Assembly: GCA_000004695.1 (NCBI GenBank)
Contig: CM000150.2
Span: 1,504,001-1,568,000 of the forward strand
Reading direction: 5' to 3'
DNA: 64,000 nt
Source: Dictyostelium discoideum
Lineage: Eukaryota
A program made the position numbers and the translations under genes. The notes beneath the pieces were generated by a model. The model saw only the letters and a list, made by a program, of their open reading frames with translations. It searched no databases and was not told where the DNA came from. Below are positions 25,143 to 38,162 of this stretch, piece after piece. Each line of letters begins with the position of its first letter. Position 1 is the first letter of the stretch.

Positions 25143-27470
25143 TTAACAACAAGATTTTTTCATTTTATAAGGAACTTGTAATTTAATTTCAGTACTAATT
25201 ACTAAAAGTTGTTCTAATTTAAAGTGTTGACCAGTTGTTGGGATATTTACTTTAATTGGTTTTAAACCCATCATTTGACTACTTGAATCTTCATTTGTAT
25301 CAAAACTTGAAAGTTGAGGTTGAGCAACATTTGATATGTATGATTGTTGTTGAGGTATGAAAGCTTGTTGTTGGGGCATTACATTTGATGAGTATGAATT
25401 AGGAGCACCTAAACCTTCAAAATCATTATCATCAGCATCATTGGTTTGATCATTTGAAAATCTAAAGATCTCTTTTGCATTTCCAGTGAATTCACCATAT
25501 TTATAATCGGTTGGAAGGTAAAGAGATATTGATAGTGTACTAATTGGAATATCTATTTGTGGGAAAACTACACCAAAAGTACCAACATTTAAAAATTCGA
25601 AATCACGAGTATGTTTATAGACCAATTCAACTTTAAAAGTTTTTTGAACACCAGAGGATGTACCAGAGGATTTATTCAATGGAATCATTAAACAACCTTG
25701 ATCATCTATGGCTGGTTTAACTGCTTTTTTAGAGACAATTGTACTCCAAATTTCAAATTGATGTGGAATTGTAACACGAATATATTGTTGTTGTTCATTA
25801 CGAATAGTGAATAAACATTTGGTCAACATTGCACCCTCTGAGCTACAAGTAGCAGTGAAATGAGCACTTGGACAAAATGCAACCAATACTGGTAAATCTT
25901 GATGTTTAATAACTTTGAATGATAATGCATACTTTGGTACAAGGAATTTATAGGATAATAATAATGGACCAGATGACATTGAAACTAGTTCCGATGGTAA
26001 TTCACTCTTATCGATTAATGTTAAATTATCACGTGTCAATGATTCAACTTCAACGTTTGCTGTCGATTCAACAGCCAAGTAACCTTTTTCACGTGAAATT
26101 TCAATACCAGAACAACGAATACCTTTTGAAATATTAATGGTACCTGATGTTGAATCCATTTCAATCTCTGCTGAAATTGTTAAACTAAATGATGACTCTA
26201 CTGATGATGTTAATTGAACCTTTATTAATTGATCTTTATTTGGTTCAGGTGTTGATATTTCTATGAGATTTGGTGATAAACAATCCCAACGTTTAATATT
26301 ATAACCATCAACACTAAGTACTTTAATATTACTACCAACCAATATATCAAATGATGAAACACTACCACTAACTACAGTATATACAATATTTGAAAGTATC
26401 ATAATTACACCTTCACCAACTGAACAAAGTGTATTTTGTTCAACATTTAATTTAGTTGCTTCAATTGGTTTAATTTGAGAAGCAGCAGCAGCGGCGGCAG
26501 CAGCTTTACCTTTTTCAGTTGAGCCAGTTGAAGAACTTAAATCAATTTGATTGATTTTTTGTTGTTGTTGTTGTTGTTCATTTTTATTTTCAGCATCAGT
26601 CCATTGAATTTTTAAATAATTTGTTGGTTGGAATGGACATTTTTTAATTGTATGTGTATATTGTTTACCATCGATTTCAACTTGTTTATATTTTAAATGA
26701 TCAACATTATCTCTAACTAAAGGTTCGACAACATCAACATTAACTTTTCTAGGTACAGAGATTTCTAAATGATTAAAAGTTGCCTTTGGTAAAGCAATAC
26801 CAACACCATTCTTTTTTGGTGTTAAAAAGTTTGCTAAAACATTCAACTCTACATTATAGGTACCAACTCTATCACAAAATAAACTATGAGCATCTTGATA
26901 AATACCAATACATGATTCATCATCATTTTTACCACTGAATTGAATTGATGATGATGTTATACAAACTGTTGATGGTAATAATGGTATTTGAACTTGATCA
27001 CAATTATTATTCTTATTATTATTATTATTATCTTTTGAATTTGGTTCAGGGAAAACATGAATTTCAAAATTACATTTAAAAGATACATTAAAATCTTCAA
27101 CATTTGCAATATATGATGATTTTTCAATTGAGTATGGAATTGATGATTCTTTATTACTATTCTCTTTTAAATATTCTAACCAATCTTTTAAAGGTAATTT
27201 AATTTTAACTTCTTTTGAATTTGGATGCTCTGTAATTGATAATAATTGTTTCTCTTGTACTTTAGTTGCATTTATTACTTTTCCTCCATAATTACTTGCT
27301 GACCATGTATTAGAGTTACAATAAAGATCTTGAAATTTTTGTTGTGGTTGTTGAACATTTACTGTGGATTTCATTGAACTTTTTGAAATGAAATGTCTAT
27401 CATCATCACTACCACTATCATTATCATTGTAACTACTACCACCACCACTACTATATTTTGATCTTGCCAT
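25143..27470 (-). CDS. Hypothetical protein, 775 aa, with short polyN, polyQ and polyA tracts and ending ..KKSCC.
   Basis: ATG-initiated intact ORF of mostly non-repetitive composition. I recognise no domain. The terminal CC could be a geranylgeranylation-type motif, which is speculative. Confidence 0.55.
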   Translation of the reverse strand: MARSKYSSGGGSSYNDNDSGSDDDRHFISKSSMKSTVNVQQPQQKFQDLYCNSNTWSASNYGGKVINATKVQEKQLLSITEHPNSKEVKIKLPLKDWLEYLKENSNKESSIPYSIEKSSYIANVEDFNVSFKCNFEIHVFPEPNSKDNNNNNKNNNCDQVQIPLLPSTVCITSSSIQFSGKNDDESCIGIYQDAHSLFCDRVGTYNVELNVLANFLTPKKNGVGIALPKATFNHLEISVPRKVNVDVVEPLVRDNVDHLKYKQVEIDGKQYTHTIKKCPFQPTNYLKIQWTDAENKNEQQQQQQKINQIDLSSSTGSTEKGKAAAAAAAASQIKPIEATKLNVEQNTLCSVGEGVIMILSNIVYTVVSGSVSSFDILVGSNIKVLSVDGYNIKRWDCLSPNLIEISTPEPNKDQLIKVQLTSSVESSFSLTISAEIEMDSTSGTINISKGIRCSGIEISREKGYLAVESTANVEVESLTRDNLTLIDKSELPSELVSMSSGPLLLSYKFLVPKYALSFKVIKHQDLPVLVAFCPSAHFTATCSSEGAMLTKCLFTIRNEQQQYIRVTIPHQFEIWSTIVSKKAVKPAIDDQGCLMIPLNKSSGTSSGVQKTFKVELVYKHTRDFEFLNVGTFGVVFPQIDIPISTLSISLYLPTDYKYGEFTGNAKEIFRFSNDQTNDADDNDFEGLGAPNSYSSNVMPQQQAFIPQQQSYISNVAQPQLSSFDTNEDSSSQMMGLKPIKVNIPTTGQHFKLEQLLVISTEIKLQVPYKMKKSCC

Positions 27471-27705
27471 ATTTTATTAATAACTAATTTGTATTATTTA
27501 TTATTTATTATTATTTATTATTTTTATTGTAGTTGACTCAACAAAAAAAAAATAAAAAAAAAATAATCAATAAAATAAAAAAAAAAAAAATAATAAAAAA
27601 AAAAATTAAATTAAAAAAAAAAAAATAAAAAAAAAAAAAAAAAAAATCTTAGTTTTTTCTGTAAAAAAAAAATAAAAATAAAATTATTCTGTGAATTTGT
27701 GTGGT

Positions 27706-27746
<41 letters not shown>

Positions 27747-28114
27747 GGTTGCAAATAAGATTTAAAAAACAAAGCTTAGTTTTTTTTTTTTTATGGAAAA
27801 TATGTTGTTTTTAAATAAATTAAACAATTTTTATTTATTTTTATTTATTTTTAAATAAAACCTTTAATTTTTTGCAATCTTTAATCATTATTTTTTTTAA
27901 TTTTTTTAATTTTTTTAAATTTCAAATCATACTTTCGTAAATTAAACAAAAAAAATAAAATAATATAAAATTTAATTTTTTTTTTTTTTTTTTGTTAATA
28001 ATAAAGACCCAAGATATTTTTATCCTAAAAAATTACGCAACATTTAACCAAAGATATTTTTTCTTCAACAAACTAAAAATAAAATATCTTTTAAAAAATG
28101 TCAAAAATTATAAT

Positions 28115-28170
<56 letters not shown>

Positions 28171-28258
28171 ATAAACAAACAAAAAATTCTTTTTTTTTTT
28201 TTTTAAAAAATAAAAAATAAAAAATAAACAAACAAATAAAATAAATTTTAAAAAAATA

Positions 28259-28503
28259 ATGATGATATCTTTAAAATCAAATTATATAATTGTATTTATT
28301 TTTTTCATAATTCAAATATTAAAAGTATTTGGAGATAGTGACTTCAGTTTATATGCAGTTACAACCAATCCAGTTGGCACATATGTAACAGTTGTTGATA
28401 CATTTTATAATAAATTTTTAGCAAATACTTCATTAAATTTAAATGACTTAAACATTCAAAGTTTTTTAACCGTTGATTCAGGTTTAAATCTTGTATGTAT
28501 AAA

Positions 28504-28534
<31 letters not shown>

Positions 28535-28571
28535 AATAACAAAATCAATAATTATTATTTAAATTCTCCAA

Positions 28572-28619
<48 letters not shown>

Positions 28620-29436
28620 ATAGATATCATTACTTTGTCAAGATTCAAATAATACAAATTATTTAGTTACTGCAGATGTTAAAACTGGTGAAATTGAAAA
28701 AAGTAAAGGAATTCAAAATGATGGTTTTAATATTACAAATAATAATAATTATATTTATTCAAATGATACAGATGATATTTTTTTACCAACATGCTCAAAT
28801 GGTGAATTAACAATTTTACATTGGAATTTCAATGAACAATCAGATTATGTCAATCAATTTGCAGTTAATGGTATTTCTGATACTGATTCAAGTTATCAAC
28901 CAAAATGTACATTGTCATCAAATAATGGTTTATATGTATTTTATAAATCAAGTGATATTGACAATCCAAGTAAACTCGTATTATTAGATTTAAATAATAC
29001 TGATAGTGGTTCATTTTCATTATCATCATCATCATCTTCATTACAACCAGTACTACCAACAATTGAAATTTACACATTTAATGGTTTTAAGGCTGACAAT
29101 GTTGAGATGATATATGTTGATAACCAAGATAGTAATGTTGTTTATGTAATTTATAATTCTGATGGTACTACACGTTCATGTACTCTCCTTCTCAATGAAA
29201 GAACCCCAATTTGTAAAAACGCATATTTTGACTACCCTTTGAATCCATATAATTATAATTATAATCCATTCTTCTTAACAAGTGATCTAGTAGGATTCGT
29301 TTCAATTCAATCAACATCACCAACTCAATTATTATTTGGACTTTGGGAATTAAATTTTGAAGGTGACTCTGCAACTCAAACTGATAATTTATGGCAATCA
29401 AAAAATCCTTCAAATTACACCTATTTTAAAAATTAA
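28259..29436 (+). CDS. Secreted glycoprotein family member A, about 349 aa. Two exons: 28259-28492, 28624-29436.
   Basis: Exon 1 reads MMISLKSNYIIVFIFFIIQILKVFGDSDFSLYAVTTNPVGTYVTVVDT.. with a signal peptide. A GTATGT donor at 28493 and a tatag acceptor at 28622-23 join exon 2 (ISLLCQDSNNTNYLVTADVKTGEIEKSKGIQNDGFNI..WQSKNPSNYTYFKN). It has many N-x-S/T sites and is a paralog of the genes at 32630 and 34303. Confidence 0.65.
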
Positions 29437-29585
29437 ATTATAATAATATTATTTAATTTAAAAATCAAATCACTATATTTAAAAAATTAAAAAAATAAAT
29501 TCATTTAATTATTTAAATTTCAAAATTTTTATTCATTATTATTACATAATATATTTTTTTATTGTGATAGTTTTTTATTTGTTTA

Positions 29586-31463
29586 TTAATAAGAATATGA
29601 AATAGAAGAGGAAGATGATGTGGAACGGGAGGAAGATGATGTGGAGGATGAAGAAGTAAAAGATGGAATGGTTAAACCTAATTTTTTACAATGTTGATTA
29701 CATTTATGTGATTGAAAGAATTTAATTATACCAGGTTTACCAAGGTTACAACTTCCAAATCTTAATGTATCAGTGGAATGAATTGCTGGATCAGTTAATA
29801 AATAACCTTTTGAGGTTTTGACACCTTGAATATCGACTACAATTGCTTTATTTTTTGATTCTTGATATGTCCAATGAGAGAATGTTTGAAGTATTTCAGA
29901 CATTGCATCATCTTTTAACCAACCACAATTACTATTGTATTTTTGATATTCACCATTGATAAATGTTTCAATCCCAAAATACATTGGTTTTTCAGAATGT
30001 TTCATTTGTAAGACTTTTGCAACAGTGAATGTAATTTGATGTTCACTCGAAGTTAATGATAATTGTTTATTAAATTCAAGTGCAAATTTTGCAGCAACAG
30101 TTTGACATTCCATTGATTCAAAATATCTTTTCTTTGAATTTTCTCTACCACCAATATATTTTGATTGTTTAAGAACTACTTTCTTACCATGTTCGTCAAT
30201 TCCTAAATAAGCTAATCTACAAGCACCGTGTGAGAATGGATTTGGAGCAATTTTAATTGAAATGGTAATTTCATTTAATTTCATTTCATAGGATGATGAT
30301 AAACATGTAACAATATCTGATGGCATTTTAAATTTTGTTTGTAACATTTGAATATATGGTAATTCACCAAAATCAATATCCATATTGGTATTAATTTCAA
30401 ATTCACGTTCACTACGTTGTTTACCTGTTGAGCCATCAATGTTGTGACCTAAATATTGTTCAGTCAATACTGATCTTGACACTGAAATACTTTCTTCAAT
30501 TGAAATAAAAATTCTTTCATTCATTTTTGAAGTTTCTTTTGAATCGAATGAATTTATTGATTTCTTATTTCTTGATATTTCTTTAGTTTTTTTATCAAAA
30601 AAATCAATCATTTGACCTGTTTCTTTAAGATTAATATGGCCAAAATAGTAGTTGATATTTAATGAAATTATATCAGTTAATAAATCATCTAATTTAATAC
30701 CATTTGGATCACCACCTGGATAAGAATCAGCCATTGAATGGTATTCAGTACCATGGCAAGGGGCATCAGCGATATGAATTACAACTCTAGTTGAATTTGG
30801 CCTCCATTTCATTGATTTAATTAAATCCATACCTCCAAATACATCTTCAGGACCATCAGCACCACCACCTGCTCTAATTTCAGAAACAAATCTAACAAAT
30901 TCTACAGTGGAACGAGAGAATTGAAAAGTTGAACATCTGTTTGATGCTACATCGAAATCAGTATAACGAATAAAACCAAATTCAATATCTAAAAATGAAT
31001 GTTTTAATTTTAATGCTTCTTGTAATTTTACAATATCACTCTTTATTTGTTCAATATATGGATCCATTGAACCAGTACAATCAACAATAAATAATAAATC
31101 AACACACTCCGATGCTCTAATTGCTTTAAATGTTAATTTAATTTCTTCATTTCTTTTTTCAATTTTTTTTTCTTTTTCTTTTGCAAGTGTTATTGAATCT
31201 TTTGTAGTAGTTGTTTTTTCATCTCTTGGGGTACTACCATAAACCATTCTTAATGCACTTTCATCTGATATATGTGTTTTACTACCACCTGAACTTAAAC
31301 CACTTCTTGATGCATCAGTTTTTAATGATGTTGGCACTTTTCTTGTTCCAAGTGAAGTTTTTGATAATGAATTTGAAATTGAATCCATATCTGAAACATT
31401 AACTCTTCCGGATGGCTTTGTTTTTGATTCTTTTTCAGTTGACAAAACATACTTTGATTCCAT
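29586..31463 (-). CDS. vwkA: von Willebrand factor A domain plus alpha-kinase domain protein (VwkA-type), 625 aa.
   Basis: The vWA signature DLLFIVDCTGSMDPYI is in the N-terminal half. The C-terminal alpha-kinase catalytic domain shows GACRLAYLG..KKVVLKQSKY..ECQTVAAKFALEFN..KPMYFGIETFINGEYQKYNSNCGW..AIVVDIQGVKTSKGYLLTDPAIHS..FGSCNLGKPGIIKFFQSHKCNQHCKKLGL. The architecture matches the described Dictyostelium vWA alpha-kinase. The symbol is given from memory of that architecture and is not verified. Confidence 0.7.
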   Translation of the reverse strand: MESKYVLSTEKESKTKPSGRVNVSDMDSISNSLSKTSLGTRKVPTSLKTDASRSGLSSGGSKTHISDESALRMVYGSTPRDEKTTTTKDSITLAKEKEKKIEKRNEEIKLTFKAIRASECVDLLFIVDCTGSMDPYIEQIKSDIVKLQEALKLKHSFLDIEFGFIRYTDFDVASNRCSTFQFSRSTVEFVRFVSEIRAGGGADGPEDVFGGMDLIKSMKWRPNSTRVVIHIADAPCHGTEYHSMADSYPGGDPNGIKLDDLLTDIISLNINYYFGHINLKETGQMIDFFDKKTKEISRNKKSINSFDSKETSKMNERIFISIEESISVSRSVLTEQYLGHNIDGSTGKQRSEREFEINTNMDIDFGELPYIQMLQTKFKMPSDIVTCLSSSYEMKLNEITISIKIAPNPFSHGACRLAYLGIDEHGKKVVLKQSKYIGGRENSKKRYFESMECQTVAAKFALEFNKQLSLTSSEHQITFTVAKVLQMKHSEKPMYFGIETFINGEYQKYNSNCGWLKDDAMSEILQTFSHWTYQESKNKAIVVDIQGVKTSKGYLLTDPAIHSTDTLRFGSCNLGKPGIIKFFQSHKCNQHCKKLGLTIPSFTSSSSTSSSSRSTSSSSSISYSY

Positions 31464-32365
31464 TTTTTATTTTGATTCAATAATATTTTTTTAAGTTTTT
31501 AAACAAAACTTAAAATATGAATTTTTGAATTAATTTATACCATAGAGAAATTCATTTTTTTTTATTTTTTTATTTTTATAAATAATAATTTAAATTTAAT
31601 TCAAAAAAATACTTTTTTTACTTAAAAAATTAAAAAAAAAAAATTAAGTTTTTCTGATCATCGAGATATTTTTTAAGCTTAAAAATATTGCAACAGTCTT
31701 TATGTTTAATTATCAAAATAAATTATAATGTTCATAAATTAAAAAAAAAATGAATAAAATTGTAGATCAGGTTGGCTTTTGAATACAATTGTAGATGCAA
31801 TACAAAAAAAAAAAAAAAAAAAAAAAAGTAGATGATCAAGAAGTAAAAATGGAATTGTTAACCTAAGAGTTTAATTAATTGATAATTGTCTGGCGATTGA
31901 AACTTTATTATATTTGTATAAATGGACCTTTTTTTTTTTTTTTTTTTTTTCACTCCAAACCAAAGAATTTAAACAAATAAAATGAAATAGAATTATTTCA
32001 AAAACAAAGATATTAAAAGATTTTAGAGAAAAAAAAAGGAAAATTGAAAAAAAAAATTAAAAAAAAAAAATTTAAAAAAAAAATAAAAAAAAAAAAAACT
32101 AGATATTAAATAATATAGAAAAAAGAATTTATAAGTGGTTGCTTTTTAAGAATGTAGTGAAAAGGTTAGAAAGTTTTACTCAAAAATTTAAATTTTTATC
32201 TAAATTTTTTTTTCCCTTCTCATTACTATCATTTTTTTAGAAGCTTTAGTTTATTTTTATCTTGTGGTAGAATAAAATTAAAAAAAAAAAAAAATATCTT
32301 TTTTTTTTAATTTTCTGATACATTGATTTTTATAATAAATATTTGGTGCATTGCTTTTTAATTAT

Positions 32366-32400
32366 AAAAAATCTTCGTTTGATTCCAATTACCTCACAGA
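32366..32400 (+). promoter_or_regulatory. Conserved upstream element aaatcttcgtttgattccaattacctcacaga about 230 bp 5' of paralog B. A near-identical copy lies at 34009-34040, 5' of paralog C, and each is followed by a TATAAATA box.
   Basis: 32366-32400 and 34009-34040 differ at one position. The downstream ttagaatg(g/a)cct..attataattctattc and (g/a)gtataaataaaaa elements are also conserved between the two promoters. Confidence 0.5.
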
Positions 32401-32629
32401 ATGGAATTATAAATAAAATTTTTTTTTTTTATTTTTTTTTTTACTTTTTTTTTTTAGAATGGCCTATTAGAATTATAATTCTATTCCCACTTATATCATA
32501 TCTTTATTATTTTTTTTTTTTTTTTTTTTTTTTTTTTGGTATAAATAAAAATTTTAAAGATCACTAAGTTATTTTTCAAATAAAAAATAAAAATATAAAA
32601 AATAAATAAATTTAAATAAAAAAATAATA

Positions 32630-33772
32630 ATGATATCTTTAAAATCAAATTATATAATTTCTATAATTTTTTTCATTTTACAAATATTGAGAGTGTTTGG
32701 CGATAGTGATTTCAGCTTATATTCAGTCACATCCAACCCAGTTGGTTCATATGTAACAATAGTTATTCCATTTTATAATCAGGTTATAGCAAACACTTCA
32801 TTAAATTTAGATGGTTTAAACATTCAAAGCTTTTTAACAGTTGATCAAGGTGTAAATGTGGTATGTGTTAAAAAATAAATTAAAAAATAATAAATAATTA
32901 TTAATATTCTCCTAATAATTAAAAAAAAAAAAAAAAAAAAAAAATTATAGATATTATTACTTTGTCAAGATTCAAAAAATTCAAATTATTTAGTTATTGC
33001 AGATGTTAAAACTGGTGAAATTAAAAAGAGTAAAGGAATTCAAAATGATGGTTTTAATATTAAAAATAATAATAATTATATTTATTCAAATGTCACAGAT
33101 GATATTTATTTACCAACATTTTCAAATGGTGAATTAACAATTTTACATTGGAATTTCAATGAACAATCGGATTACGCCAATCAATTAACAGTTAATGGTA
33201 TTTCCGATATTGACCCAACTTATCAACCAAAAGGTGTAATAACATCAAATAATGGTTTATATATATTTTATAAATCAATCGATAATAATAATAATAATAA
33301 TAATAATAATAGTACAAGTAAACTCGTATTATTTAATTTAAATAATACTGATAGTAGTTCATTATCATCATCTTCATTACAACCAGTACTACCAACAATC
33401 GAAATTTACACATATAATGGTTTTGAAGCAGACAATGTTGAAATGATATATATAGATAATGAAGATAATAATATCGTTTATGCAGTATATAATACAAATG
33501 GAACTACACGTTCATGTACTCTCCTTTTCAGTGAACAAAACTCAATTTGCCAAGATGCATATTTTGACTATAATTTAAATCCAAATAATTATAACTATAA
33601 TCCATATTTTATCACAAGTGATTTATCATCATTTGTCTCATTACAATCAACTTCACCAACTCAACTAGTATTTGGAGTTTGGTCATTAGATTTTGGAGCT
33701 GATACAACAACCCTAATCTATAATTTATGGCAATCAACAAACCCATCAAATATCACCTATTTTAAAAATTAA
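32630..33772 (+). CDS. Secreted glycoprotein family member B. Two exons: 32630-32860, 32951-33772.
   Basis: Same exon structure as A, with a GTATGT donor at 32861 and a tatag acceptor at 32949-50. The protein reads MISLKSNYIISIIFFILQILRVFGDSDFSLYSVTSNPVGSYV.. / ILLLCQDSKNSNYLVIADVKTGEIKKSKGIQNDGFNIKNNNNYIYSN..WQSTNPSNITYFKN. Confidence 0.65.
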
Positions 33773-33887
33773 ATAATGCTATTGTTTTTTTGATTTAATT
33801 TAAATCAACATGGTTAAATTTAAAAAAAAAAATTAAGAAAAAAAAAATTAAATGAAATAAAAAATTTAATTTTATTGAAGCTTTAAA

Positions 33888-33921
<34 letters not shown>

Positions 33922-34302
33922 CTAATAAACAGTTTGATTGGTTTGAATTACGAAATTTTTTTTTTTTTCTATTTTTTTTTTTTTTTTCTGAAAACCATTA
34001 AAATTTTTAAAAATCTTCGTTTGATTCCAATTACCTCATAGAATTAAAATATCTTCGATGCGGTTTCCATTTTTTTTTTTTTTCGTTTTATTATTTTTTA
34101 GAATGACCTTTATTATAATTCTATTCTCATTTTAATCATTCGTTTATATTTTAGTATAAATAAAAAATTATTTTTGTTTTAAATTATTATCCAAAAAATA
34201 TAAAAATAAAAAACAATTCAAAAAAAGACACAATAAAAATAAAAAAAAACAATAATAATAAAATAATAAATAAATTAATTTATATAAATCAAATAAAAAA
34301 TA

Positions 34303-35435
34303 ATGATATCTTTAAAATCAAATTTTATAGTTGCAACAGTATTTTTCATTATACAAATATTAAAAGTATTTGGAGAATATGATTTTGGTTTATATGCAGT
34401 CACATCAAATCCGGTTGGTTCATATGTAACAGTTGTTGATACATTATATAATCAAGTATTAGCAAACACTTCATTAAATTTAAATGGTTTAAATGTTCAA
34501 AGCCTTTTAGAAGTAGATTCTAATTTAAATGTCGTATGTATTAAAATATTAAAAAAAAAAAAATATATCATCAATAATTATTAGTATTATTCTCTAATGA
34601 TAAAAAAAAAAAAAAAAAAAAATTATAGATTACATTACTTTGTCAAGATTCAAAAAATTCAAATTATTTAGTTATTGCAGATGCTAAAACTGGTGAAATT
34701 AAAAAGAGTAAAGGAATTCAAAATGATGGTTTTAATATTAAAAATAGTAATAACTATATTTATTCAAATGCCACAGATGATATTTATTTACCAACATTTT
34801 CAAATGGAGAATTAACAATTTTACATTGGAATTTCAACGAACAATCAGATTATGCCAATCAATTAACAGTTAGTGGTGTTTCCGATATTGACCCAACCTA
34901 TCAACCAAAAGGTGTATTATCATCAAAAAACATTTTATATTTATTTTATAAATCAAATGATAATAACAGTCCAAGTAAACTCGTATTATTAGATGTAAAT
35001 ACTACTGATAGTGGTTCATCATCATCATCATCGTCGCCATCATATTCATTACAACCATTCGAAACTTACTCATTTAATAGTTTTGAAGCAGATAATGTTG
35101 AAATGATATACATTGATGGTGAAGAGGGTTCTAATATTGTCTATGCAGTTTATAATACCAATGGAACTACACAAGCATGTTCTTTTGTTCTCAGTGAACA
35201 AAACTCAACTTGTCAATATATTCCTCTTGAAATTAATTTAAATCCACAAAATTATAATTATAACCCTTATTTCATCACAAGTGATTTATCATCATTTGTT
35301 ACATTACAATCAACATCGTCAAATCAATTAGTATTTGGACTTTGGGAATTAAATTTTGGTGCTGATTCACCAACTCAAATCTATAATTTATGGCAATCAA
35401 CAAACCCATCAAATATCACCTATTTTAAAAATTAA
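34303..35435 (+). CDS. Secreted glycoprotein family member C. Two exons: 34303-34533, 34629-35435.
   Basis: GTATGT donor at 34534 and tatag acceptor at 34627-28. Exon 2 ends ..LWQSTNPSNITYFKN*, and the promoter architecture is conserved with B. Confidence 0.65.
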
Positions 35436-35504
35436 ATAATATTATTTATTTTATTAAAAATTAATAAAAATATCTTTTTTTTTAATATATATAGTTTTAT
35501 TTTT

Positions 35505-35539
<35 letters not shown>

Positions 35540-35639
35540 AATTATATGCTTTTTATTTAATGAAAATATCTCTGAAATGGTTCCCATTTTATTTTTTTTT
35601 ATATTTTTTTTTTTTTAAACCAGTTTATTTTTCAAATGG

Positions 35640-35916
35640 AATAACTCAGGCATGTTCTTTTGTTCTCAGTGAACAAAACTCAATTTGTCAAGATACTTAT
35701 TCTCTTGAAATCAATTTAAATCCAAATAATTATAACTATAATCCATATTTTATCACAAGTGATTTATCATCATTTGTTACATTACAAACATCAACTACTC
35801 AATTATTTTTTGGACTTTGGTCATTAAATTTTGGTGCTGATACAACAACCCAAGTCGATAATATTTATGGAAATCAACAAACCCATCAAATACCACCTAT
35901 TTTAAAAATTAAATAA
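35640..35916 (+). pseudogene. Truncated 3' fragment of a fourth family member (D), with a 1-bp deletion frameshift near the end.
   Basis: NGITQACSFVLSEQNSICQDTYSLEINLNPNNYNYNPYFITSDLSSFVTLQ..FGLWSLNFGADTTTQ aligns to the last ~90 codons of paralogs B and C. There is no signal-peptide exon and no upstream homology. Caaataccacctat here versus caaatatcacctat in B and C shifts the frame before the shared stop. Confidence 0.6.
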
Positions 35917-35972
35917 TATTATTTATTTAGTTAAAAATAAAATTATTATAATTGAATTTAAAACTATTAATG

Positions 35973-36024
<52 letters not shown>

Positions 36025-36281
36025 AATTAATAAAATTTAATAATTAAATTCTTTTCAAAGTATAACTATTTCTTTAATAGGAAAAACCATATGTTATTAT
36101 TATTATAAAAAATTTTTTTAATAAAACTATTTTATTATTAAACATATTTCTTTTTTTTTTTTTTTTTTTTTTACAATTTATTAAAATTTATTAAAACTAT
36201 ATTCTAAAAAAAGAAAAAAAAAATGTAAAAAAATAATTTTAATTTTTAAAAATCAAATAGCCTCAACAATAATACCTTTCA

Positions 36282-36314
<33 letters not shown>

Positions 36315-36788
36315 AAAAAAAAATAGAAATAAAAAAAAATAAAAAAAAAATTGTAACTGATTTTAAAATTAACATAATTATTATTATTTTTTTTTTTTCT
36401 AAAAAAAAAACCACAAATATGAAAAAAATGATTAAAAAAAATAAAATAACCAATCAAATTAGGAAGGTAACAAAAAAACAAAACTTTTAATCAATGCAAA
36501 AAAAAAAAAAACTGAAAATACAATGTTTTTTTTTTATTTTTTTAATAATATATTAAATTAAATTTTTAATTTTATAATAATAAAAAAAATGGGATTTTAA
36601 TAAAATCTGAAAATTGATTTTTTTTTAAGTATAAAAGGTTATTTTTAAAATTAATTTCCAGTGTCATTTGTCAAATAATTAAATTACAAACAAACAAATA
36701 AATAATATATATATTTAAAAAAAAAAAAAAAAAAAAATAATCAAATAGTCAAATACATTAGAAAATAAACATTATTGTAAAATCAAAA

Positions 36789-38162
36789 ATGTATCGAATT
36801 TTAAAATCATTTATACTATTATCATTAGTAAATATGTCTTTATCACAAAAGATTGGTAAATTAACACCAGAAGTACATCCTCCAATGACATTCCAAAAAT
36901 GCTCAGAAGGTGGCTCATGTGAAACAATTCAAGGTGAGGTTGTAGTTGATGCAAATTGGAGATGGGTACACTCTGCACAAGGTCAAAACTGTTACACTGG
37001 TAATACTTGGAATCCAACCATTTGTCCAGATGATGAAACATGTGCTGAAAACTGTTATTTGGATGGTGCAAACTATGAAAGTGTCTATGGTGTTACCACT
37101 AGCGAAGATTCAGTTCGTTTGAATTTCGTTACTCAAAGTCAAGGTAAAAACATTGGTTCTCGTTTATTCCTCATGTCAAATGAATCAAATTACCAATTAT
37201 TCCATGTACTTGGTCAAGAATTCACTTTTGATGTTGATGTTTCCAATCTCGATTGTGGTCTCAATGGTGCACTCTACTTAGTCTCAATGGATAGCGATGG
37301 TGGTTCTGCTCGTTTCCCAACAAATGAAGCCGGTGCTAAATATGGTACTGGTTATTGTGATGCCCAATGTCCAAGAGATCTTAAATTTATTAGTGGTTCT
37401 GCAAATGTTGATGGTTGGATTCCATCAACTAATAATCCAAATACTGGATATGGTAATCTTGGTTCATGTTGCGCTGAAATGGATCTTTGGGAAGCAAACA
37501 ATATGGCAACTGCTGTAACTCCACATCCATGTGATACTTCAAGCCAAAGCGTATGTAAGAGTGATTCATGTGGTGGTGCTGCTTCTTCAAATAGATATGG
37601 TGGTATTTGCGATCCAGATGGTTGTGATTACAATCCATACCGTATGGGTAACACCAGTTTCTTTGGTCCAAACAAAATGATTGATACCAACTCTGTAATT
37701 ACTGTTGTAACTCAATTCATTACTGACGATGGTTCATCCGATGGCAAATTAACCTCAATCAAGAGATTGTATGTACAAGATGGTAACGTTATCTCTCAAT
37801 CAGTATCAACCATTGATGGTGTCGAAGGTAATGAAGTCAATGAAGAATTTTGTACTAACCAAAAGAAAGTATTTGGTGATGAAGATTCCTTCACTAAACA
37901 TGGTGGTCTTGCTAAAATGGGTGAAGCCTTAAAGGATGGTATGGTTCTTGTTCTTAGTCTTTGGGATGATTACCAAGCCAACATGTTATGGCTCGATAGT
38001 TCATATCCAACAACTTCATCTCCAACAGATCCAGGTGTTGCTCGTGGATCTTGTCCAACTACCTCTGGTGTTCCATCTAAAGTTGAACAAAATTATCCAA
38101 ATGCATACGTTGTCTACTCTAATATTAAAGTCGGTCCAATCGATTCAACATATAAAAAATAA
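36789..38162 (+). CDS. cbhA: Glycoside hydrolase family 7 cellobiohydrolase (Cel7/CBH I-like), 457 aa, secreted, single exon.
   Basis: A signal peptide is followed by the GH7 catalytic core: [108 protein letters not shown]. The EMDLWE motif holds the catalytic Glu residues. The symbol is a best guess for the Dictyostelium GH7 gene. Confidence 0.85.

Follow-up and report, generated by a model that had tools for sequence, protein, structure and literature searches.

The sequence examined is a 64,000-nucleotide window (positions 1,504,001 to 1,568,000 of contig CM000150.2) from chromosome 1 of Dictyostelium discoideum AX4, where the G+C content is 20–25%, poly-A/T tracts are long and the GTATGT...ATAG introns are short. 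It contains a small gene family, with three intact paralogs (A, B and C) followed by the remnant of a fourth (D), first noticed in a preliminary description made from the sequence alone. Prior to this analysis, A, B and C were annotated hypothetical genes, and D (DDB_G0268150) was flagged as a pseudogene by dictyBase. The genes are listed below, together with a non-family gene located between A and B.

28259–29436 (+): paralog A, DDB_G0268142; exon 1 28259–28492, intron 28493–28623, exon 2 28624–29436; 348 amino acids (aa)
32630–33772 (+): paralog B, DDB_G0268146; exon 1 32630–32860, intron 32861–32950, exon 2 32951–33772; 350 aa
34303–35435 (+): paralog C, DDB_G0268148 (Q55FE8); exon 1 34303–34533, intron 34534–34628, exon 2 34629–35435; 345 aa
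29586–31463 (−): vwkA, DDB_G0268144, vWA alpha-kinase of 625 aa; between A and B, not a family member

Translation of the A, B and C models revealed no internal stops, confirming the three intact two-exon paralogs of the preliminary description. Protein B is 100% identical to DDB_G0268146, and C was assigned by exact look-up. Each gene contains a GTATGT...TTATAG intron (131, 90 and 95 bp for A, B and C, respectively), found in phase 0 at the homologous codon, in agreement with the matching intron position reported earlier. A motif conserved between the three introns (AATAATTATTA..TATTCTCYAA) is located ~25–50 nt upstream of the 3' splice site (28540–28575, 32888–32915 and 34570–34600), and probably includes the branch-point region. 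Protein identity is 76% for A/B, 71% for A/C and 77% for B/C, as expected from the ~70–80% estimated previously for the mature regions. The first exon had been described as a signal-peptide exon; it does encode the predicted signal peptide, but also codes for ~54 residues of the mature protein.

A tblastn search across the window identified no family copy beyond A, B, C and D. The locus can be considered a tandem array, given that it consists of adjacent same-strand paralogs with a common exon structure and common flanks, of which at least one is disabled. While the description of A, B, C and D as a local same-strand family holds, the array is interrupted between A and B by vwkA on the minus strand. 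The gene upstream of the array, DDB_G0268140, is a 775-aa open reading frame (ORF) divergent from A, and the next gene after the array encodes a GH7 glycoside hydrolase (cellulase).

The upstream module and pseudogene D

A shared promoter segment of about 200 bp had been proposed for B and C. The similarity is real (75% identity over 159 bp between 32360–32513 and 34002–34152, E 3e-25) and far above the low-complexity background of other intergenic comparisons, but its length is closer to ~155–180 bp. The element placed at 32366/34009 is present in both promoters, with the exact shared 27-mer AATCTTCGTTTGATTCCAATTACCTCA (32370–32396 and 34012–34038) starting ~3 nt from those positions. Other elements common to B and C are TTTTAGAATGRCCT (at 32452/34096), ATTATAATTCTATTC (at 32472/34112) and GTATAAATA (at 32539/34154). 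The respective modules, and the corresponding region of A, are as follows.

32370–32547 (+): B module, −260 to −91 relative to the ATG; box1 32370–32396; TTTTAGAATGGCCT 32452–32465; palindrome TAGAATTATAATTCTA with box3 32468–32486; GTATAAATA 32539–32547
34012–34162 (+): C module, −291 to −149 relative to the ATG; box1 34012–34038; TTTTAGAATGACCT 34096–34109; box3 34112–34126; tail TTTTAATCAT 34130–34139; GTATAAATA 34154–34162
27471–28258 (+): A upstream region, shared with the divergent DDB_G0268140; sole TATA-like site 28118–28125

Within the window, exact matches to the 16-mer core of box1 occur at the B and C sites only. There are three YAGAATK motifs in the B module and two in that of C. 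The perfect 16-nt palindrome TAGAATTATAATTCTA (32468–32483) is seen in B-type promoters only.

Alignment of 13 promoters from seven genomes reveals four family blocks, consisting of box1 AATCTTCGKTTGATTCCAAT (followed by YAGAAT), TTTTAGAATGA, ATTCTATTCYCA..TTTAATCAT and the invariant GTATAAATA, separated by unalignable T-rich DNA. The block order is box1-AGAAT-ATTCTATTC-TATA. In every B-, C- and D-type copy, box1 is located 230–300 bp upstream of the ATG, with 0–2 mismatches in D. discoideum and 1–5 in cf. discoideum and D. citrinum. The block order is preserved in the degenerate form found in the D. firmibasis promoter (ATTCG-TTGATTCCA, TTTAGAATGG, ATTCCATTCTCACTTTGATCCT and GTATAAATA), and the first copy of a two-copy D. 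citrinum assembly has a degenerate module only. None of the four blocks was found in the three A-type promoters of the D. discoideum assemblies, in support of the earlier view that the promoter of A is unrelated. The A upstream region is itself conserved across the A orthologues of all three D. discoideum assemblies. The presence of the module in D. citrinum and D. firmibasis is at odds with the notion that it is a novelty of B and C. It is instead the ancestral promoter of the family, and A is the copy that changed by losing it. The conserved blocks could be candidate transcription-factor sites conferring condition-dependent expression. No match to structured RNA families was found in Rfam for positions 27000–37000 (E ≤ 1), and RNA folding of the upstream modules is unremarkable (z-scores of −1.6 and −0.8).

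When the AX4 copy of D is aligned with C and the D alleles from two further strains, two remnants can be distinguished.

35559–35617 (+): D promoter remnant, homologous to C upstream 34042–34100 (78% over 59 bp)
35621–35913 (+): D coding remnant, ~last 97 codons, frameshifted

The fourth copy had been reported at 35640–35916, comprising only the last ~90 codons and carrying a 1-bp deletion. The copy is genuine, but its coding homology begins at 35621. The lesion has the same effect on the reading frame, but is in fact a 2-bp AT insertion near 35862–35863 when compared to the other two D alleles: the extra AT lies within GATAATATTTATGG, where the other alleles read GATAATTTATGG, and matches the frameshift seen by tblastn. 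Neither is D a mere 3' fragment, as it keeps the promoter remnant, and strain GCA_054859385 has an almost full-length allele with box1, TATA box, ATG and exon 1, disabled by deletions and a stop codon. A single large deletion, which fuses the promoter remnant to the last ~97 codons, is common to the D alleles of AX4 and GCA_054859355, and box1 is additionally gone in AX4. D is what is left of a once complete fourth gene after an internal deletion. The proposal that gene and promoter were duplicated as a unit is borne out.

The annotated ORF DDB_G0268150 (Q55FE7, 118 aa, named 'transmembrane protein' by NCBI and UniProt) covers 35560–35916. Its ATG is located inside the promoter remnant, and its poly-Phe 'transmembrane' N-terminus corresponds to translated poly-T. 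The public annotation can thus be corrected to a pseudogene with an N-terminus derived from promoter DNA. D has previously been listed as 'DDB_G0268150_ps, pseudogene', with zero reads (Kin et al. 2018, PMC6198379).

Distribution, divergence and expression of the family

The locus was recovered from seven other Dictyostelium assemblies, allowing 17 intact copies to be rebuilt from eight genomes, the window included. The open frame and the intron position are kept in 17/17 of these. Homologues were only found in the D. discoideum, D. citrinum and D. firmibasis clade and, as far as the searches see, the family is confined to it. A single copy is present in D. firmibasis and in one D. citrinum assembly, where a relic of exon 1 from the first citrinum copy also persists. 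Two copies are found in a second assembly labelled D. citrinum and in two of cf. discoideum. The three D. discoideum assemblies (the window and the loci L005 and L006) share the order A-vwkA-B-C-D. In all cases the array is located between DDB_G0268140 and the GH7 gene; synteny with D. purpureum and T. lacteum is not conserved at the locus.

In a neighbour-joining tree rooted on the firmibasis gene, A, B and C group by orthology across the D. discoideum assemblies, and the B/C split precedes the cf. discoideum lineages. An intact vwkA between A and B is seen in D. discoideum sensu stricto only. One cf. discoideum assembly (L007 8689–8847 and 8896–9212) contains, at the corresponding position, a vwkA 3'-end fragment and the relic of an A-type exon 1 interrupted by a stop codon, and the A-vwkA-B order therefore predates that lineage and has been eroded there. 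A further cf. discoideum gene (L002 6484–7602) is a mosaic, with exon 1 C-like (87–89%) and exon 2 B-like (93%), which suggests that paralogs recombined or underwent conversion in that lineage. Such a pattern is typical of birth-and-death evolution with occasional recombination between copies.

The synonymous divergence (dS) between paralogs is 0.27 for B/C, 0.33 for A/B and 0.36 for A/C. For the flanking genes, dS is 0.09–0.10 between AX4 and other D. discoideum assemblies and 0.27–0.28 between AX4 and D. citrinum. The paralogs are thus separated by three times the flanking divergence of AX4 from wild strains, similar to that between discoideum and citrinum. The duplications are therefore local but not recent, contrary to what had been suggested, and orthologues of A, B, C and D are each present in all three D. 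discoideum assemblies. The ratio of nonsynonymous to synonymous divergence (dN/dS) ranges from 0.27 to 0.67 for the family overall, with 0.27–0.57 between orthologues (0.27 for B) and 0.38–0.47 between paralogs. The neighbours GH7 and DDB_G0268140 display values of 0.03–0.19 at similar dS. Judged by these ratios, the family is under purifying selection, with its proteins evolving 4–5 times faster than their neighbours.

A lack of transcripts had been named as grounds for doubting the spliced models. In vegetative cells, published transcript levels (in transcripts per million, TPM) are 10.5/10.3 for A, 3.3/2.6 for C and 0.56/0.52 for B, with D at 0 (Kin et al. 2018 supplement, PMC6198379), and the three intact genes can be considered to have transcript support. 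Mature cup, stalk and spore cells give near-zero values for all of them (PMC6198379). The values of Parikh 2010, as reproduced in PMC6198379, place A at 5–14 units at all stages from 0 to 24 h, with 4.3 in prestalk and 1.0 in prespore cells. On Klebsiella pneumoniae, A is down (log fold change (logFC) −2.64, adjusted P 1.7e-9; Lamrabet et al. 2020, PMC7078664). In the same study C is up (logFC +3.38, adjusted P 0.0017), in a list of >130 induced genes. The induced-gene totals reported are 372 for Bacillus subtilis and at most 113 for any other condition (PMC7078664), and the list is therefore taken to be the B. subtilis comparison. The comparison of A with B and C called for by the preliminary description accordingly reveals A > C > B, with A expressed at every developmental stage, and A and C responding to bacteria in opposite directions. 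The data support a regulatory divergence of A, which differs in promoter, expression level and response; this fits a constitutive A promoter as opposed to a condition-dependent ancestral one. The proposed subfunctionalisation of A is upheld as far as regulatory divergence is concerned, but the data fit neofunctionalisation equally well.

Protein features and predicted fold

An N-terminal hydrophobic segment (~residues 2–22, ending VFG; KD19 1.8–2.0) is present in the family proteins, with no other hydrophobic stretch (maximum KD19 1.26) and no hydrophobic C-terminus. They are likely to be soluble secretory-pathway proteins with a predicted cleaved signal peptide. The mature regions had been described as rich in N-glycosylation sites. 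This does not hold, as the 6–7 N-X-S/T sequons per protein compare to a mean of 8.5–9.8 in shuffled sequences, and thus reflect composition rather than an excess. Nevertheless, four sequons (N55, N124, N208 and N344, B numbering) are invariant in 17/17 copies, as are three cysteines (C82, C266 and C277). Two extra cysteines, C135 and C173, occur in all three A-type orthologues and in no other family member (window 28661–28663 region of A), and may form an additional, A-specific disulfide.

No Pfam match was obtained for A, B or C, in keeping with the earlier statement that no domain could be recognised. Apart from family members and fragments, a profile search against 1.84 billion cluster representatives returned only four repeat proteins, all with weak matches. 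These (LYLFWKANDSS-type blades, DUF6242/neuraminidase-like) match a single blade motif and were rejected as homologues. An AlphaFold2 model calculated from the family alignment is all-beta with ~22 strands (predicted local distance difference test (pLDDT) 60, predicted template modelling score (pTM) 0.63). The predicted fold is a single-domain six- or seven-bladed beta-propeller, in the generic sense of that fold and with no propeller family assigned. No sequence match to the WD40 repeat profile was found in the family. A PDB sequence search initially suggested NHL/designed 'Pizza' six-bladed propellers (single-sequence phmmer E 8e-10). No individual stretch passed, with all matches derived from query residues 212–257 against identical repeats, and there is no Pfam NHL match. 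The Pizza matches vanish with the family profile, and the family is therefore not placed in the NHL group.

Origin of the array and comparison with known systems

Taken together, it is probable that the locus represents a birth-and-death array of a young, clade-restricted family of predicted secreted, single-domain beta-propellers of ~345 aa, with the ancestral promoter retained by B and C and lost by A. We propose that a lone ancestral gene, of which D. firmibasis still has just one copy, was located between DDB_G0268140 and the GH7 cellulase gene, and that in D. discoideum repeated local duplication of a 'promoter + two-exon gene' unit gave rise to the four copies A to D. The ancestral promoter would have been kept by B and C, with box1 AATCTTCGKTTGATTCCAAT, two or three copies of YAGAATK, ATTCTATTCYCA and GTATAAATA at 90–300 bp before the ATG, and by D in part, while A would have lost the module, presenting a different upstream region, and gained a cysteine pair. 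The decay of D presumably involved an internal deletion joining the promoter remnant to the last ~97 codons, followed by the 2-bp insertion. Regulation differs between the copies: A is constitutive in growth and development, with repression on K. pneumoniae; under standard conditions B and C are nearly silent, and B. subtilis induces C. The proteins may enter the secretory pathway and carry N-glycans at the four invariant sequons, serving outside the cell or in endolysosomes as lectin-like binding propellers while the amoebae feed on bacteria.

A number of points weigh against this proposal. The structural model is of moderate confidence and does not fix the number of blades at six or seven, and secretion, glycosylation and binding are predictions only. 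No family member is present in one life-cycle proteome supplement. B is barely expressed (0.5 TPM), with no inducing condition known, and the induction of C is assigned to B. subtilis by list length. Exon-wise distances do not single out the first D. citrinum copy as the orthologue of A. The 75% identity of the B/C module corresponds to the neutral expectation at dS 0.27, and the case for function therefore rests on the retention of the blocks across species; these were delimited after the alignment was seen, which weakens any formal statistic.

The level of B/C identity is what would be predicted for unconstrained DNA if the upstream similarity were a neutral residue of duplication, devoid of regulatory function. 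However, the same blocks are found in the same order and at a similar distance from the ATG in D. citrinum (dS 0.42 to B) and are recognisable in D. firmibasis (dS 0.6–0.7), while the AT-rich DNA around them cannot be aligned. The citrinum box1 core differs by one base, and chance 16-mer matches with ≤3 mismatches amount to ~3 per 128 kb searched. A neutral residue is thus considered unlikely. It is extremely improbable that the segment corresponds to the 3' untranslated region (3'UTR) or terminator of the preceding copy, the scenario named in the preliminary description as undermining a promoter. At C it is located 240 bp past the B stop codon, and this position alone is compatible with such a scenario. 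In contrast, vwkA, the upstream neighbour of B, is transcribed away from the segment, and in single-copy species the module precedes the sole gene by 150–300 bp, with the divergent DDB_G0268140 as neighbour. For these reasons the upstream segment is a promoter and not a 3'UTR. No comparable sequence is seen downstream of the A or C stop codons, and the module ends in an invariant TATA box 90–150 bp before the ATG.

Turning to the coding regions, the very weak expression of B and C, the absence of protein from one life-cycle proteome, the lack of a domain match and a dN/dS several times that of the neighbouring genes could indicate that at least part of the trio A, B and C consists of ORFs in decay or without function, the family being annotation noise. 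We consider this very unlikely, since 17 copies retain both the open frame and the intron, all orthologue pairs yield a dN/dS below 1, and A and C respond significantly to bacteria. True decay has a different appearance, as seen for D and the exon-1 relics with their deletions and stop codons. Ongoing gene conversion might also keep the paralogs similar, in which case the duplications would be much older than dS suggests. Codons ~77–155 (28624–28860, 32951–33190 and 34629–34865) indeed display a proportion of synonymous differences (pS) of only 0.08–0.24 among paralogs, and the cf. discoideum B/C mosaic described above is consistent with such exchange. However, pS for the same codons is also low (0.13–0.19) between B and its D. 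citrinum orthologue, which is not explained by conversion among paralogs, and the orthologues of each paralog group together cleanly in the three D. discoideum assemblies. Ongoing conversion therefore appears doubtful. Nucleotide-level constraint or a mutational cold spot is suggested by the low pS in preference to conversion alone, and conversion is not required to account for the 90–93% identical start of exon 2.

Beyond the birth-and-death model, it is conceivable, if rather unlikely, that these are newly arisen, clade-confined secreted propellers for discriminating or handling bacterial prey, with the ancestral promoter acting as a Gram-positive/stress response element and A rewired to constitutive expression. 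If so, the fast protein evolution, copy-number turnover and opposite bacterial responses would be signs of an amoebal 'innate-immunity-like' recognition locus, and a family acting on bacteria would add to the small set of amoebal recognition factors. The practical value of the present analysis is modest, providing a predicted fold and an evolutionary history for three 'hypothetical proteins'. The locus also offers a natural experiment in promoter evolution, in which an ancestral promoter (B, C) can be compared to a replaced one (A), with expression differing to match. Box1 represents a short, deeply conserved candidate cis-element, few transcription-factor sites having been defined in D. discoideum. 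The genes and the pseudogene were already annotated, the propeller is a common fold, and the array is of an ordinary kind; new here are the fold assignment, the reconstruction of D, and the recognition that the 'duplicated promoter' is an ancestral promoter lost by A. Literature searches of main texts by gene and UniProt identifiers returned no published characterisation of the family.

Among known structures, the model resembles the secreted or periplasmic single-domain beta-propellers of the Photorhabdus lectins PHL/PLL (seven-bladed; 6fhx, 5c9o) and TolB (7mx5). This is a resemblance of predicted fold only: these proteins are from a different kingdom, share 8–11% sequence identity with the family, and are matched by neither single-sequence nor family-profile searches. 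For the Photorhabdus lectins, the similarity amounts to a template modelling (TM) score of ~0.5 at 9% identity, from a model with pLDDT 60.

Closer to the locus, the DICPUDRAFT_148002 family (P0036–P0039) of group-4 dictyostelids is similar to A, B and C in size (~324 aa), signal peptide, single intron and beta-rich character, and contains similar short motifs, such as DPTTGEISKN compared to DVKTGEIKKSKG. In D. purpureum, DICPUDRAFT_148002 (L008 17498–18553) is found ~5 kb from the DDB_G0268140 orthologue. A weak tblastn match had put it forward as a homologue, but hhalign gave a probability of 38% for the single sequence and 16% for profile versus profile, which does not support the link. The DICPUDRAFT_148002 family is better conserved, and coexists with the A/B/C family in D. 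citrinum and D. firmibasis.

Lineage-specific families of secreted proteins encoded by tandem duplicates are common in the Dictyostelium genome. While the A/B/C family differs from these in having no recognised domain, it is similar to them in its head-to-tail copies, short single intron, AT-rich TATA promoter and pseudogene relics.

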